64,000 nt of DNA from Octopus vulgaris (lineage: Eukaryota). The notes below the pieces were generated by a model. That model saw only the letters and a list, made by a program, of their open reading frames with translations, was not told the DNA's origin and did no database searches. The position numbers and the translations under genes were made by a program. The stretch lies in contig OX597822.1 in assembly GCA_951406725.2 (NCBI GenBank), positions 88,970,001 through 89,034,000 of the forward strand, read 5' to 3'. Shown here piece by piece: positions 1,427-61,327 of this stretch. Numbering within the stretch: position 1 is the stretch's first letter; every line of letters starts with the position of its first letter.

Positions 1427-1526
1427 GATGTCCACGTCTACAAATCTATAGATAGGACAGCAGACCCCGCCGAGCTTGCCGATTATCCTGTTGAATTCCT
1501 GAATTCACTTGAACCGCCAGGCCTGC
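1427..1526 (+). repeat. Exact 100-bp direct copy of Helitron segment 728-827, fused to the 5' end of the RTE LINE
   Basis: gatgtccacgtctac...gaaccgccaggcctgc is identical at 728-827 and 1427-1526. Confidence 0.95.
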
Positions 1527-3095
1527 GACAACCACCGAGGTATCTCCCTCTTGTCCATAGCAGGCAAGATCCTGGCCCGGGTCCTGCTTGACCGCCTTCT
1601 GGAACAGTTGGAGCAAGGCCTTCTCCCTGAGAGCCAGTGTGGCTTCCGCGCGGGTCGAGGGACCACTGACATGATATTCGCCGCCCGCCAGCTCCAGGAG
1701 AAATGCATGGAGCAGCACCTTGACCTCTGCATGACCTTTGTTGACCTCACCAAGGCCTTTGATACAGTCAGTCGGGAGGGACTATGGAAGGTCATGGGAA
1801 AATTTGGTTGCCCCAGCAAATTTATTGCAATTGTCCGCCAGTTCCACGACGGAATGACAGCCAGAGTCCTTGAAGACGGCAACTCATCTGAAGCCTTCCA
1901 GGTGACCAACGGAGTCAGGCAGGGCTGTGTCCTGGCCCCAACACTGTTCAGCATCATGTTCTCGGCAATGCTGTCCGACGCCTTTAGGGACTGCAAATCT
2001 GGTATCGACATCAACTACAGGACAGACGGGAAACTTTTCAACTCCAGAAGATTGCAGGCTGTCACAAAGGTGAGGGAGACAGTCGTCAGAGACTTTCTCT
2101 TTGCTGACGACTGCGCCCTTAATGCAATCGATGAGCAGGAGATGCAGCTCGAGATGGACAGGTTCTCATCAGCCTGTGACAACTTCGGTCTCACCATCAG
2201 TGCCAAGAAAACCGAAGTGATGTTTCAGCCAGCCCCCGGCAAACAATACCATGAGCCTCAGATAAGGGTGAACGGACGGATCCTACGAGTGGTGGAAAAC
2301 TTCACCTACCTGGGCAGCACTCTCTCCTGCAATGCCAACATAGATGCTGAAACCATCAACAGAATCTCCAAGGCAAGCAGCGCGTTTGGGAGACTGCGAA
2401 AGAAAGTCTGGGAGCGGAGAGGAATCAGCCTCAACATCAAGCTTAAAAAGTCTACCGGGCAGTCGTGCTTACCACCCTACTATACGACTGCGAGACGTGG
2501 ACTGCTTACCGAAGGCATGAGCGCCAGATAAACCACTTCCATCTCAGGTGTCTTCGGAACCTCCTTCACATCCGCTGGCAGGACAAAGTCCCAGACACGG
2601 AAGTTCTGAAGCAGGCAGATCTCCCTAGCACCATCACAATCATGCGCAAGGCCCAGCTGAGATGGGCGGGCCACGTCTCCCGCATGTCCAACACTCGCAT
2701 CCCAAAACAGCTCTTCTACGGTGAACTCGGCCAGGGCAGGCGCAAAGTCGGAGGGCAGAAGAAGCGCTACAAGGATAGTCTCAAGGTCTCTCTCAAAGAC
2801 TTCTCCATCGGAACAGAGACCTGGGAGACACTTGCTGCCAACCGCTCATCCTGGTGCAGCGCAATCACCATGGGAGCAGGGACAGCCGAGGAGGGACGGA
2901 TTCGATCAGCGGAGCAGAAACGTCAGATGCGTAAAGCCAGAGCCGCCTGCACCAGTAGCACGGCCCCTACCCACTTCTGCCCCACCTGTGGGAGGGGCTT
3001 CCTTACCCGGATTGGCCTCACCAGCCACCTCAGGTCTCATGGTGGCAGTTCCATCAGATGATGTCAGGTGGTCATCTTCGAACCGAAGGACGAAC

Positions 3096-28519: not shown

Positions 28520-28648
28520 GCAACTTTTGAGAAGCTTGAAAATGAAATGAAAGAAATTAATGCCAATGCTGAGGCTTTGAAGCGGAATTTTCTGGAATTG
28601 ACAGAACTTAGACATATACTACGCAAAACACAGAATTTTTTCGAAGAG
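28520..28648 (+). CDS. ATP6V0A1: V0 subunit a, coding exon 4
   Basis: Long pyrimidine tract...ctccag|ATFEKLENEMKEINANAEALKRNFLELTELRHILRKTQNFFEE|gtgatt; 129 nt, phase 0. Confidence 0.96.
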
Positions 28649-40740: not shown

Positions 40741-40850
40741 GCTGAATCCAATCACAATCTGAATTTGCATGATTCTGGCAATAATGAGGAGTCAACTATG
40801 CTACTGATGGATGAAACTTTTTATCAAGTTGGCCTGGCATTAAAATTAGG
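40741..40850 (+). CDS. ATP6V0A1: V0 subunit a, alternative coding exon 5A
   Basis: attttactag|AESNHNLNLHDSGNNEESTMLLMDETFYQVGLALKL+gg|gtgaga; 110 nt, phase 0 to 2, ending in LG as expected before the FVAG exon. Confidence 0.85.
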
Positions 40851-45357: not shown

Positions 45358-45393
<36 letters not shown>

Positions 45394-45396
45394 ACC

Positions 45397-45559
45397 AGAG
45401 TGGGTGCATGTTAAGTAGCTTGCATACCAACCACATAGTATCGGCTTAAGTCCCACTGTATAGCACGTTGGGCAAGTGTCTTCTACTGTAGCCTCAAGCC
45501 AACTAAAGCCTTGTGAGTGGATTTGGTAGACGGAAACTGAAAGAAACCCATTGTGTATG

Positions 45560-45601
<42 letters not shown>

Positions 45602-45627
45602 CGCGGGTGCATATATATATATATGTG

Positions 45628-45659
<32 letters not shown>

Positions 45660-45918
45660 CGCACACATATATGCACACACACATGCACATACATATATGT
45701 GTGTGTGCGTGTGTCAGTGTATCTGTGCTTGTCCCCCCCCCGTCACTTGACAACCAAAGTTGGTGTATTTACATCCCCATAAATTAGCAGTTCGGAAGAA
45801 GACACCAATCAAATAAGTTCTAGGCTGACAAAGAGTAAGTCTTGGGATCGATTTGTTTGACTAAAGCCAGTGCTCCAGCATGGCCACAGTCAAGATGATT
45901 GAAACAAATACAAGAAAA
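45397..45918 (+). mobile_element. Near full-length tRNA-derived SINE with internal (TA)/(TG) microsatellite
   Basis: Head gagtgggtgcatgttaagtagcttgcataccaaccac..., body ttgggcaagtgtcttctac, tail gtgctccagcatggccacagtc. Confidence 0.85.
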
Positions 45919-47030: not shown

Positions 47031-47432
47031 TCTTTTACTCTTTTACTTGTTTCAGTCATTTGACTGCAGCCATGCTGGAGCACTGCCTTTAGTCAGGCAA
47101 ATCGACCCTGGGACTTATTGTTAGTAAACCTAGTACTTATTCTATCAGTCTCTTTTGCTAAACTGCTAAGTTACGGAGAGATAAACACACCAGCATCGGT
47201 TGTCAAGCAATAATGGGGGGACAAACACAGACATACAAACACACATACACATATATATATACATATATATGATAGGCTTCATTCAGTATCCGTCTGCCAA
47301 ATCCACTCACAAGGCTTTGGTTGGCTCAAGGCTATAGTAGGAGACACTTGCTCAGGATGGCATGTAGTGGGACTGAACCTGGAACCATGTGGTTGGTAAG
47401 CAAGCTACTTACCACACAGCCACTCCTGTGCC
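47031..47432 (-). mobile_element. Full-length tRNA-derived SINE
   Basis: rc: ggcacaggagtggctgtgtggtaagtagcttgcttaccaaccacatggttccaggttcagtcccac...gactgaaacaagtaaaagagtaaaaga. Confidence 0.9.
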
Positions 47433-47559
47433 TATATAATATGAATACTATATATTATAAATACTATATATATATATAAATAAAATATGATTTCTACATA
47501 TAATATATTATATATACTATATATATAATATATATATTATATATGTATATTATACAGAT

Positions 47560-47830: not shown

Positions 47831-48089
47831 TATATATATATAATATATATATAACACACACATATATATATATGCTATATATATTAATACATATAATATA
47901 TATATACTATATATATTACATACATGTAATGTATATATGATATATTATATATATATATACACATACTATATATGTATATAATACATCATCATCATCATCG
48001 TTTAACGTCCATTTTCCATGCTAGCATGGGTTGGACGGTTCAACAGGGGCCTGGCGCAGCCTTTGTACAGATATATAATATAATATATG

Positions 48090-48136
<47 letters not shown>

Positions 48137-48250
48137 ACATATATATATAATATACATGTCATGTATATATATATATATATACACAACATATATATATTAT
48201 ATACATGTCATGTATATATATATATATATATATATTTATTATATAGAAGG

Positions 48251-48301
48251 AGCTTCTACAGGACTAGAACTGTTTCATTCAAGAGAAATCTTCAGGAAGC
48301 T
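48251..48301 (-). ncRNA. Type I hammerhead ribozyme (antisense copy)
   Basis: Reverse complement of 50072-50122. Confidence 0.75.
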
Positions 48302-48548
48302 AGTTAACAAGAATTGTATTGGCATTTATACATTTAGGCAGGTTTATAGGGGTGGTGGTGGGGGACTTTTTGGGGGTAGGCATAGCGCAAAAAAATCATA
48401 CTTGGGGGAGTGGTCAAGGAGTCAGTGGTAAATTAGATAGAAGAATAAATAAAAGAATAAAAAAAGAATAAAATACAAAAATATATAGAAGAATAGAGTT
48501 TTAGGTAAATAAGGAAATTCTCAACACACACACATATACATACACACC

Positions 48549-48582
<34 letters not shown>

Positions 48583-48598
48583 TATACATACATATATC

Positions 48599-48642
<44 letters not shown>

Positions 48643-48821
48643 CACATATACATGCATATACACACACACGACCACACATACACATACACATAAAAAAAAA
48701 ATATATACATACACACGCATACACATACACACATACACACACATATATCCACATACACACATGCACACACAACACACAAGTCCCTATATACTCATATATA
48801 CATATACACATATATGTATGT

Positions 48822-48881
<60 letters not shown>

Positions 48882-49598
48882 GTGTACCTATTCATACACA
48901 TATATGTACGTATACACACACACACATATACACATACATACACACACATACATACATATGTGTACCTATTCATACCTACACATACACACATATATACATA
49001 CAATTACAAACCCATTCCCTAATTTTAATTTTATTATCTTCATTTATTACTTTTGTTATCTTTGACCGCTGGTCACAAACATCTTGGCTAGTCCCTTTTA
49101 TCTTTCTACTTGAGCACAAGCACTCACTCACGCACGCACACTCATTAGCACGCACACACACTCTCATTCGTACACTCATACACATACATGCACGCACGCG
49201 TTATATTCATACATACATACATCTACATACATACACGTATATACACATACGTACGCGTACCTACAGATTCATGTCTACAATCTTAGAAGACTAGTCTATA
49301 CATATACACCAAATATATATACACACATACATATACACCTACATACAAATACATACATACATATATATACACACATATATATACATACACACATACACAT
49401 ACACATATATATACATATATATATACACATATATACATATATATACATATATATATATACACACATATCCACATACATACATACATACACCCATACATAC
49501 ATACATATATACACACATACACACAACCACACGTATACATATACATACATATACGCGCATGCATACACATACAAATACATACACATACACATATACAT

Positions 49599-49649
<51 letters not shown>

Positions 49650-49734
49650 CACATACATACACATACATATACATATATACACACACACACATACATACAC
49701 ATATACACATACACGCACATACACATATACATGC

Positions 49735-49781
<47 letters not shown>

Positions 49782-50071
49782 TATACATACATATACATAC
49801 ACACATACACATACACACACACACATGTGTATGTATATGTGTGTGTGTTGAGAATTTCCTTATTTACCTAAAACTCTATTCTTCTATATATTTTTGTATT
49901 TTATTCTTTTTTTTATTCTTTTATTTATTCTTCTATCTAATTTACCACTGACTCCTTGACCACTCCCCCAAGTATGATTTTTTTGCGCTATGCCTACCCC
50001 CAAAAAGTCCCCCACCACCACCCCTATAAACCTGCCTAAATGTATAAATGCCAATACAATTCTTGTTAACT

Positions 50072-50122
50072 AGCTTCCTGAAGATTTCTCTTGAATGAAA
50101 CAGTTCTAGTCCTGTAGAAGCT
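50072..50122 (+). ncRNA. Type I hammerhead ribozyme (sense to host gene)
   Basis: agcttc CTGAAGA t-ttc-tctt-gaa-t GAA acag-ttctagtc-ctgt A gaagct: 6-bp stem I, 3-bp stem II under a U.U pair, 4-bp stem III, GUA cleavage triplet. Confidence 0.78.
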
Positions 50123-50205
50123 CCTTCTATATAATAAATTAATTTTACTCTGCTATGTATTGAGTACCTTATTTACTGTGGTTAACCCCGAATCAACCCG
50201 GGACC

Positions 50206-50241
<36 letters not shown>

Positions 50242-50261
50242 ACATATATTATATACATGTC

Positions 50262-50296
<35 letters not shown>

Positions 50297-50331
50297 ACAT
50301 ATATATATTATATACATGTCATGTATATACA

Positions 50332-50372
<41 letters not shown>

Positions 50373-50689
50373 GCCAGAAGAAAATGGAGGGGATCAAGAG
50401 GTGGTATTCATCAATTTTTAGACATTATATTATGTGTATTTGTTTTAAAAGCCATTATAACAATATACATACATGTATAACACATTATGCTTTACACATA
50501 TAATATATAAAAATATAAAAATACCAGTAATTATTAAAATTTGTAATGTAAAGCATAGGAAGTATATATACGTTATAGGTATATAATGTATATATATACC
50601 AATGTACAGAGATTGGCAGAAAGTGCAGGGGATGCAGAAAATAACGTTGTTAGAAGCTTCCTGACTCTTCCTTTCCATGCTTGTTATCT

Positions 50690-57785: not shown

Positions 57786-57871
57786 TCTGACTCGTTGATT
57801 GATGATGCTGACCAAGCATTAGTGGGTGACCATCTTGCAAAGTATCAGGAGCGCCAGCAGTCTCCTCTGGG
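57786..57871 (+). CDS. ATP6V0A1: V0 subunit a, alternative coding exon 5B
   Basis: tttcttcatttgcttaatactag|SDSLIDDADQALVGDHLAKYQERQQSPL+gg|gtatgt; 86 nt, open, phase 0 to 2, ending in LG; GC-richer than flanks. Confidence 0.72.
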
Positions 57872-59267: not shown

Positions 59268-61322
59268 ATATTGGGAGTGGCCATGGGAATGCGAATGGGC
59301 CCCAACTATGCAAACCTGTTCTTTGGCTATGTTGAGGCCCAAATATTCTCTAGTTTCACTGGTCCCACTCCTGAACTATACGGTAGTTACATTGATGACA
59401 TTATCGGTGCCACCTCACTCTCCCGTGAACATCTAGACTCCTTCCTCTCTTTCGTTCAATCCTTCCGTCCTGCCCTCCACTTCACCTGTACTATCTCCAA
59501 CACCTCTGTCTCCTTCCTCAACGTTTTGGTCAGCATTCATCACTCCACTCTTACCACCTCCATTCACTACAAACACACAGACTCACACTCATACCTAAAC
59601 TTCTCTTCCTCCCACCCCAAACACACCAAGCTTTCCATCCCCTATTCCCAATTCCTCCATCTACGTAGGCTCTGTAATGACGACCATGACTTTGAGACTG
59701 TCTCAACTCATGGCTCGCCACTTCATCCTACGTGGATACCCCCTCACCACTATCCACACCGCCCTTGCCAGAGCACGTTCCGTAGATCGTGCATCTGCTC
59801 CCCCCCCCCCCCCGAACCCGCCCTGCAGTCTCCCGCCTCCCTTTTCCCCTCACTTACCACCCCACCACCCTACCTCTCCAATGCACCATTCTTCGAGCTT
59901 TCCGGCATCTCCAGTCCGACTCGTCCACTTCACACCTCTTCCCTAACCGACCCCTCCCCTCCTTCAAACGAGCCCATAACCTACGAGACTTCTTGATTCA
60001 CAGCTTCTTCCCTGACCCTACCTCCCAACCTGGCTCGTTCCCCTGCTCCCGCCCACATTGCCACACTTGCCCTTACCTCTCCAACACCACCCTCCTCACC
60101 GGCACCCATCATTGACCCTATCGCATCATCGACTCCTTCACCTGCACCTCCAGCAATATCATCTATTGCATCTCCTGCTCCCTCTGCCATTCCCTGTACA
60201 TCGGACAAATGGGACGCAGCTTGGCTGACCGGTTCGCGGAACACCTCCAAGATATCCGCCTCGCCAATGACACACCAGTCTCACGCCATTTCTGCTCCAC
60301 TGGTCACTCCTTGCAACACCTGTCTGTGTTCGGATTGTCCTTGCACAGAGGCCATCCGGATTACCGCTTGTGCCGTGAACAGGGATTAATCTTCTCTCTT
60401 CGCTCTTTTACACCATTTGGGCTCAACTCTTCCCCCTTTTCATCTAACCTCCCCCTGACTCCTACTTCTCTTCAGTCCTTCATCTTTTCACCCCTACTCT
60501 CTTTCCCTCCACTTCCCTTCTTTCCCTTCTTCCCTCTTCTTCTTTCTTCTTCCCTCTTCCCCTTCTCTCTTTCTCTCTGCTCCCTCACTCCCCTTCTCCC
60601 TTCCCCTCCTTCTCTTTCTCTCCTCCTCCTCCTCTCCCTACCATGCCCCTCCTTCTCCTCCCCTCCGCTCTCTTCTCTCCCCCTCTCACTCTCCCCACAA
60701 CCCTCACTCTACCCCAACCCCCAGCCGAACCCACACCCCACATGGGCTTTCCCCACTCCCACCCCCACCTCCCCACAACATCACACCACACTACACTACA
60801 CCATACGACATTACACATCACATCACAACACACGACCCACAGCACACCGCCCACACACCCATCCCCACATCTTTACACCTAAACATACATACACATATAT
60901 CACAACACACCACCCACACACCCATCCCCATATCTCCATATCTCCACACCCACACATACATACACACGTTCAGACCACCAGCCCCCTTTCACACGCACAT
61001 ACATACTCTCTTATACACACACGCACCTTCGTGTTGGGGCCACCTTCGTTTTGGAAGTCACTTGACCCTGTTATCTCCCCTACTATCCCTCTAGCGTCTA
61101 ACGTCTGACCTCTGCCTGAAGTCAGAATGCCATGATAGACCATTAGCTCCTACATGCATTTTTTTCTCTCCTTGTTTCTTTTCTGTGTATCTTTCTGTCG
61201 AGGAGCGTAGCCTCGAAATGTAAAAGACTTGTTCTATTTCTATTCCTGAGCGCCATACTAATACATTTGTTTGTTTGTACTCCACCTGCCTTCGTCTTTT
61301 GTTTATTTTCGTAAACCTTCAC

Positions 61323-61327
<5 letters not shown>
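59268..61327 (+). mobile_element. 5'-truncated Penelope-like retroelement (RT motifs, GIY-YIG, pyrimidine/CA tract, terminal repeat)
   Basis: [16 protein letters not shown]...SYIDDIIG...SFLNV...[19 protein letters not shown]...[14 protein letters not shown]; FTCTSSNIIYCISCSLCHSLYIGQMGRSLADRFAEH. Confidence 0.9.
61190..61227 (+). ncRNA. Degenerate minimal hammerhead motif in the Penelope terminal repeat
   Basis: tcttt CTGTCGA ggagcgtagcctc GAAA tg TA aaaga; A6 replaced by T, stem I tcttt/aaaga intact. Confidence 0.5.

Follow-up and report, generated by a model that had tools for sequence, protein, structure and literature searches.

The window, the whole 64-kb stretch of Octopus vulgaris DNA that was analyzed, carries exons 1-4, 5A and 5B of the gene for V-ATPase subunit a1, all on the + strand; the exon at 28520-28648 retrieves this subunit with 100% identity to Octopus sinensis proteins. 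Upstream of the gene lie ORFs at 536-1318, which we take to be helicase-like, and at 1503-3058, presumably from an RTE-like reverse transcriptase (RT). An earlier reading of the sequence alone (hereafter, the sequence-only reading) had placed a ribozyme-bearing element in an alternatively spliced intron, and we found that Octopus sinensis RefSeq isoforms do use either 5A or 5B. Both exons have lengths of 2 mod 3, so whole inclusion of both shifts the frame; in one cuttlefish model (P0130), a portion of 5A is joined to 5B. Both exon types occur in cuttlefish proteins, and forms that resemble 5A and 5B are present in the annelid Owenia, which indicates that the exon switch is ancient and far older than the insertion described here. 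The octopus 5A is strongly diverged from the 5A-type exons of cuttlefish and other molluscs, and 5B is identical in octopus, Argonauta and cuttlefish. A literature search on this exon pair gave nothing relevant among the matches listed. The element starts 7384 nt downstream of 5A and ends 7578 nt upstream of 5B, and its parts and neighbors are as follows.

40741-40850, + strand: V-ATPase a1 exon 5A, 110 nt, bounded by AG/GT; exact match to O. sinensis isoforms X1, X2, X4 and X5
48104-48233, no strand: left flank, (TA)n and two minisatellite units; direct copy of the right flank
48234-50208: whole element, in the intron between exons 5A and 5B
48234-48546, - strand: left arm, an inverted copy of the element 3' end without the tail (arm alignment; its end equals position 50139)
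48251-48301, - strand: left-arm copy of the hammerhead, antisense in the host pre-mRNA and sense on the minus strand (descriptor match)
48547-49825, no strand: interior, 1279 nt, CA/TA microsatellite with short unique patches
49821-49830, no strand: 10-nt palindrome, the likely inversion junction, where the CA-rich strand turns TG-rich
49826-50139, + strand: right arm, a direct copy of the element 3' end (arm alignment and family contigs)
50072-50122, + strand: type I hammerhead, sense in the host pre-mRNA, with a predicted cut after 50116 (descriptor match)
50113-50131, + strand: 8-bp hairpin that covers the cut site together with the 3' strand of stem I, a predicted local off-switch (pair probabilities and shuffles)
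50140-50208, + strand: 69-nt tail on one side only, with (TA)n next to it (family contigs of 4 of 4 runs cover it)
50209-50349, no strand: right flank, (TA)n and two minisatellite units; direct copy of the left flank
57786-57871, + strand: V-ATPase a1 exon 5B, 86 nt, bounded by AG/GT, alternative to 5A; exact match to O. sinensis X3 and to O. vulgaris, Argonauta and cuttlefish proteins
59271-61326, + strand: a second Penelope-like element (PLE), without a fold-back and in the orientation of the host gene, located in the intron downstream of exon 5B

Alignment of the reverse-complemented left arm (313 nt) with the right arm (314 nt) matched at 313 of 313 aligned positions with a single 1-nt gap in a T run, so the near-identical inverted arms proposed from the letters were borne out. 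The element as a whole is asymmetric, a point that the sequence-only reading missed, as the tail at 50140-50208 has no counterpart on the left arm. The last bases of this tail (50187-50202) form a small GC stem with an AC-rich loop, which recalls the AC-rich stem loop at which reverse transcription of the anole PLE begins. The interior is microsatellite, as had been said, being mostly CA/TA repeat with two short non-repeat patches. The element also lies within a minisatellite, as proposed; its flanks hold 2 + 2 units of ~49 bp in the same orientation on both sides. These flanks carry (TA)n on both sides and align with each other as direct copies (a 130/141-nt match of 48104-48233 with 50209-50349), and the match may reflect either a long target-site duplication or a split four-unit array. 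Elsewhere in the same intron, 45361-45915 and 47039-47463 form a second inverted pair (77-79% identity), presumably SINE-like.

How the interior belongs to the two copies can be parsed in two ways. The left arm boundary is flanked by the two copies of a 21-nt direct repeat, at 48524 and 48572, and other microsatellites of the window share at most 15 nt. The interior is probably continuous with the left (minus-strand) copy, and the best parse is thus a ~1.6-kb inverted copy followed by a 383-nt direct copy with the tail. The strength of this parse is only moderate because base composition points the opposite way: GC skew of the interior + strand is -0.73, and its composition resembles the right arm and not the left. 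A first parse based on composition had made the interior part of the direct (+) copy, and it was demoted by the boundary repeat and the junction palindrome. The interior may be the 3' UTR of the element or captured host DNA; in a check for local capture, the interior patch at 48990-49300 had no second copy in the 64-kb window. The interior gave no ORF match, and the ORF list of the element contains repeat-derived frames only.

A hammerhead descriptor run on the 64-kb window matched exactly two places, 50072-50122 on the + strand and 48301-48251 on the - strand, consistent with the earlier claim of a sense type I hammerhead and an antisense copy in the other arm. None of 100 dinucleotide shuffles gave a descriptor match of this strength. 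The motif has the core CUGANGA / GAAA / NUH and stems I-III of a type I hammerhead, here as CUGAAGA at 50078-84, GAAA at 50097-50100 and GUA at 50114-16. Stem I (50072-77/50117-22) has 6 bp, stem II has 3 bp closed by the loop UCUU, and stem III has 4 bp with a palindromic 8-nt loop. At the base of stem II, the G10.1-C11.1 pair (common, not invariant, in type I hammerheads) is absent and U50085.U50096 stands in its place. This unusual pair, already pointed out in the sequence-only reading, is the family state, as no family variant was found at 50085 or 50096 among the rows listed. A literature search on U10.1 variants found no description of them, and the axolotl retrozyme hammerhead HHR_Amex2 provides a published precedent for activity with U.U at the stem II base (its monomer reaches 22% cleavage in 1 h and its dimer does better; PMC7229834). 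Rfam gave 0 gathering hits in the whole window, and at E<=10 the 129 matches in 48000-50500 included no hammerhead family, only microsatellite-driven miRNA matches. Relative to shuffles, unconstrained folds of the hammerhead showed no added stability (z -0.33 to -0.76), and a bacterial promoter scan, irrelevant here, was at chance level.

We surveyed the repeat family with 49850-50208 against assembled contigs of public sequencing runs. At least half of the sampled words of this query were held by 20 of the 24 listed runs (9 studies, 5 coded organisms; one may be the source sample), none of them listed as RNA, and four of these 20 were aligned. The four, from three coded organisms, yielded 2929, 1716, 392 and 114 family contigs (contigs, not copy number). 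Summed depth (again not copy number) at the 5' end of 49850-50208 is about one-twentieth of that at the hammerhead, the pattern expected of 5' truncation. Contigs also leave the query at 50139 and run into (AT)n, with 12 and 14 such loose ends in two runs, and 2 contigs of a third run make the same exit at 50143. The left arm stops where these other copies end (i.e., at 50139), and the tail-less end is therefore a property of the family. Position 50026 is T in 97-100% of family depth in all four runs and A in both arms here, so the two arms derive from one template. Together with the identical arms, the many family contigs in four runs uphold the proposal of a recent insertion from a multi-copy family. 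Pattern scans for the family found 0 matches in metagenome contigs and 0 in viral contigs.

Among the 40 variant rows listed, hammerhead variants fall at core position 7 (50082), in loop II (50089 and 50090) and in loop III (50105), with a single A>G change in stem I that comes from one run; no invariant core base is affected. With the loop III variant, the palindrome becomes longer and the predicted homodimer strengthens from -12.8 to -15.2 kcal/mol. Compensatory stem changes were not seen among the family variants listed. In three runs, loose ends at 50072 join, at the AGCT palindrome of stem I, a sequence that resembles the reverse complement (agreement 0.53-0.68), and 50072 is possibly a recurrent inversion point in other copies. 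The run presumed to be RNA showed A>G differences at 8 of 36 listed places, compared with 0/23, 0/22 and 1/34 in the other three. Its A>G places at 50059, 50068 and 50072, within 49944-50072, are linked on two contigs and of low depth, without DNA of the same individual. All depth of this run at 50026 carries the family base T and not the A of this locus, and the cluster is only a hint of editing of other family copies.

The architecture of the element matches that of PLE insertions. Such insertions comprise an inverted 5'-truncated copy, a one-sided tail of 30-40 bp, hammerheads in the pLTRs and (TA)n targets (PMC8557442), and inverted PLEs have junction palindromes, commonly take the form of head-to-head arms and can capture unrelated DNA between pLTRs (PMC3846280). 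In the anole PLE, the tail is the span between two internal RT start sites (PMC11167929). Like the fold-backs of EN+ PLEs described in these reports (Penelope/Poseidon and Neptune), the octopus copy has inverted, head-to-head copies of its 3' end, a one-sided tail, a terminal repeat whose hammerhead lies close to the 3' end, a (TA)n target and a junction palindrome, and it belongs to a multi-copy family that uses both of its end points and has many 5'-truncated members. It differs from them in lacking an ORF, in its longer tail (69 nt vs 30-40) and, if the flank duplication is real, in a duplication of ~130 bp vs 8-10.

The second PLE of the window offers a local comparison. It is 5'-truncated, with a frameshifted RT, a GIY-YIG domain (both Pfam matches weak and below cut-off) and a CxxxxCxxC linker of the Neptune/Nematis kind. 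Its ~900-nt 3' UTR is simple repeat, (TA)n stands at both ends of the copy, and near 61195 a minimal hammerhead-like motif with an altered core is followed by a short tail and then (TA)n. Because this copy also ends in a hammerhead-like motif, a short tail and (TA)n, we count it in support of the PLE reading of the fold-back. A GIY-YIG-like relic at 50463-50654 (- strand), just right of the fold-back and separated from it by minisatellite, has 25% identity to the endonuclease of the second PLE (E 1.4e-4).

Taken together, we consider it likely (probability about 0.85) that the element arose by one recent insertion from a Penelope-like family present in many copies in octopus, and that only non-coding 3' sequence was kept. 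Kinship with PLEs, which the sequence-only reading had also invoked, is supported by the architecture above (arms, tail, palindrome, target and hammerhead position). The unusual length of the tail, the lack of an Rfam match, the missing G10.1-C11.1 pair and the absence of compensatory stem changes among the variants listed count against it. The PLE origin rests on architecture because tblastn with four PLE peptides from 59271-60430 found no RT or endonuclease remnant within 48234-50208, where the ORF with RT and GIY-YIG that marks an autonomous EN+ PLE is absent, and because no autonomous partner was found. Assignment by architecture, and not by a parent ORF, likewise fixes no clade among the EN+ PLEs. 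We propose that a PLE RT/GIY-YIG protein, from a full-length parent or in trans, would have nicked a (TA)n array, that RNA would have been copied from two internal start points (50208 and 50139), and that, at the palindrome near 49825, folding back or a switch of template would have produced the long inverted and the short direct copy.

The sequence-only reading had instead seen a non-autonomous, retrozyme-like family. In a related alternative, the whole ~2-kb fold-back would be mobile as a dedicated unit, either PLE-dependent or retrozyme-like with circular RNA. The missing ORF and the very many family contigs favor this idea, animal retrozymes derive from PLE pLTRs (bioRxiv 10.64898/2026.07.22.740005) and unrelated DNA between solo pLTRs has been described (PMC3846280). 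Retrozymes, however, are head-to-tail tandem units of 150-450 bp on one strand that yield circular RNA (PMC7229834). The preprint on animal retrozymes reports exclusion from introns. The octopus element shares with the retrozyme of HHR_Amex2 a type I hammerhead with U.U at the stem II base, yet its two motifs lie one per strand; it has no tandem hammerhead units, and the family contigs contain no joints. Opposite-strand hammerheads cannot release unit-length RNA, and the depth decay toward the 5' end is as in truncated copies. The retrozyme label is thus not sustained. Nor is "non-autonomous", as the data are explained just as well by an autonomous PLE of which this is a 5'-truncated copy. We regard a dedicated mobile unit as unlikely, and it is the strongest of the alternatives to a PLE insertion.

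Folding predictions suggest that the hammerhead of this insertion is hidden. In a transcript ending at 50122, stem I is predicted at P 0.77-0.99, stem III at about 0.5 and stem II weakly at 0.05-0.07. When the transcript reaches 50131, the 8-bp hairpin at 50113-50131 dominates (P about 0.98; pair P 0.81-0.99) and stem I falls to 0.01; in a post hoc test in which the next 20 nt were shuffled 300 times, a single shuffle suppressed stem I as strongly. This hairpin, overlooked by the sequence-only reading, is predicted to outcompete the ribozyme fold. Sequestering by an antisense arm that is made earlier, the masking which that reading did put forward, holds up as a prediction only: in full nascent RNA of either strand, all 51 of the 51 hammerhead bases are predicted to pair with the other arm, and the arm duplex has a predicted energy of -554 kcal/mol. 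Head-to-head geometry places the antisense arm first, and such self-masking is therefore expected of any fold-back of this kind, transcribed in either direction. Masking by the antisense arm would also be redundant, given that the local hairpin is predicted to hide the cut site already.

It had further been suggested that editing or unwinding of the duplex frees the ribozyme. Simulated editing argues against this. With 50% A->G standing in for inosine (G overstates the stability of I.U), the duplex moved from -554 to -494 kcal/mol and still stood, and the probability that all five core adenosines survive was 0.03. The catalytic core is thus predicted to be lost while the duplex is still closed, and editing is unlikely to unlock the ribozyme.

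Low or conditional activity would be in line with related ribozymes. PLE hammerheads, among which opposite-strand pairs are reported, have low activity in vitro (PMC4209133), and the hammerhead of the anole PLE is active only with protein, with no RNA-seq ends found at its cut site (PMC11167929). The octopus motif resembles these PLE hammerheads and Anolis PAc in being type I, in its palindromic loop III and in a ribozyme fold that is not the free-energy minimum. It differs in a longer stem III (4 bp with an 8-nt loop), in a short stem II with U.U for G10.1-C11.1, in the added downstream hairpin over the cut site and in having no ORF start after the motif. In our proposal, the hammerhead would serve the RNA cycle of the element itself. 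It would be conditional, hidden by the local hairpin and suited by its palindromic loop III to act as a dimer, and, as with the ribozyme of the anole PLE, it possibly would need help from protein. Within the pre-mRNA of the host, it would be a passenger locked by the local hairpin and the 313-bp duplex. The duplex is a likely ADAR/Dicer substrate; inverted arms of rearranged Drosophila Penelope copies give rise to siRNA (PMC3681739), and the octopus arms are likewise predicted to form long dsRNA, which here would come from a host intron. The element would be removed with the intron in both isoforms and would not steer 5A/5B.

A bolder version gives the lock a role. The two layers (i.e., local hairpin and fold-back duplex) would have been selected, such that octopus introns retain masked hammerhead copies in sense orientation and are purged of unmasked ones. 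Many introns would become ADAR-loaded hairpins, and tissue-specific release would cut the V-ATPase a1 pre-mRNA after commitment to 5A and shift 5A/5B. We consider this full scenario improbable.

The CPEB3 ribozyme is a single-copy, HDV-like and conserved ribozyme. It resembles the octopus motif, as predicted here, in being of self-cleaving type and in the sense strand of a host intron (PMC10919898), whereas the octopus hammerhead belongs to a large mobile family, of which it is a young and, by prediction, masked copy. The sequence-only reading had proposed that the duplex gates the hammerhead, and that editing or unwinding frees a cut at 50116/50117 and shifts the 5A/5B ratio. The sense hammerhead does sit between real mutually exclusive exons, the intronic CPEB3 ribozyme can affect maturation of its host mRNA (PMC10919898), a fast intronic ribozyme can abort splicing (as reported in PMC2995048) and cephalopod repeats are broadly edited (PMC9068888). 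Splicing of 4-5A could, we infer, finish before the cut site is made, which would create a kinetic asymmetry. Against these points, both isoforms splice across 50116 (4-5B and 5A-6), and the 5A and 5B types of cuttlefish and Owenia far predate an insertion with arms identical at 313 of 313 positions. The local hairpin is predicted to mask the cut site without the other arm, and the edited duplex is predicted to persist while the core is lost. Intronic hammerhead cuts left splicing largely intact, while a fast HDV ribozyme did not (reported in PMC2995048). The arms have no match near 5A or 5B and no pairing with exon-flanking sequence. Gating of 5A/5B is not absurd, given CPEB3, yet it is unsupported, and we think it very improbable that the element biases exon choice.

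An assembly artefact, in which a fold-back read or a collapsed repeat made the inversion, seems to us just as improbable. The arms are identical except for one homopolymer gap and lie in low-complexity DNA, PLE inversions are known to trouble assemblers (PMC8557442), and no contig of the public runs bridges the locus or spans 49850-50208. Nevertheless, the left arm stops exactly at the natural tail-less end of the family, the unique 1.28-kb interior and the tail are unduplicated, and the minisatellite runs on past either end without a change of orientation. Finally, a TA target and long, almost perfect inverted repeats that enclose non-coding DNA could recall a MITE or foldback DNA transposon with a hammerhead present by chance in its terminal inverted repeats, but the termini are asymmetric (69-nt tail on one side), the family shows a 5'-3' depth gradient and the tail belongs to the family, which leaves this origin barely credible.

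The locus thus provides a clean worked example of PLE fold-back and points to a large, young, hammerhead-bearing repeat family of octopus that is apparently undescribed. In O. vulgaris, 31 recently active Penelope-like families have been reported (PMC13282606), a paper whose main text does not contain the word "ribozyme". The literature found on hammerhead ribozymes and Penelope in Octopus and cephalopods does not describe the family, and the supplements of PMC4209133, PMC8557442 and PMC13282606 may list it. A role in host isoform choice would be striking if true but is without support. The local off-switch hairpin and the family itself are modest additions to known PLE biology, and the predicted hairpin over the cut site is a concrete handle on why PLE hammerheads are weak or protein-dependent. 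Because head-to-head geometry always puts the antisense arm first, comparison of fold-back with solo copies provides a genome-wide test of selection against intronic ribozymes: if the lock is selected, an excess of fold-backs or dead cores is expected among intronic copies in sense orientation.
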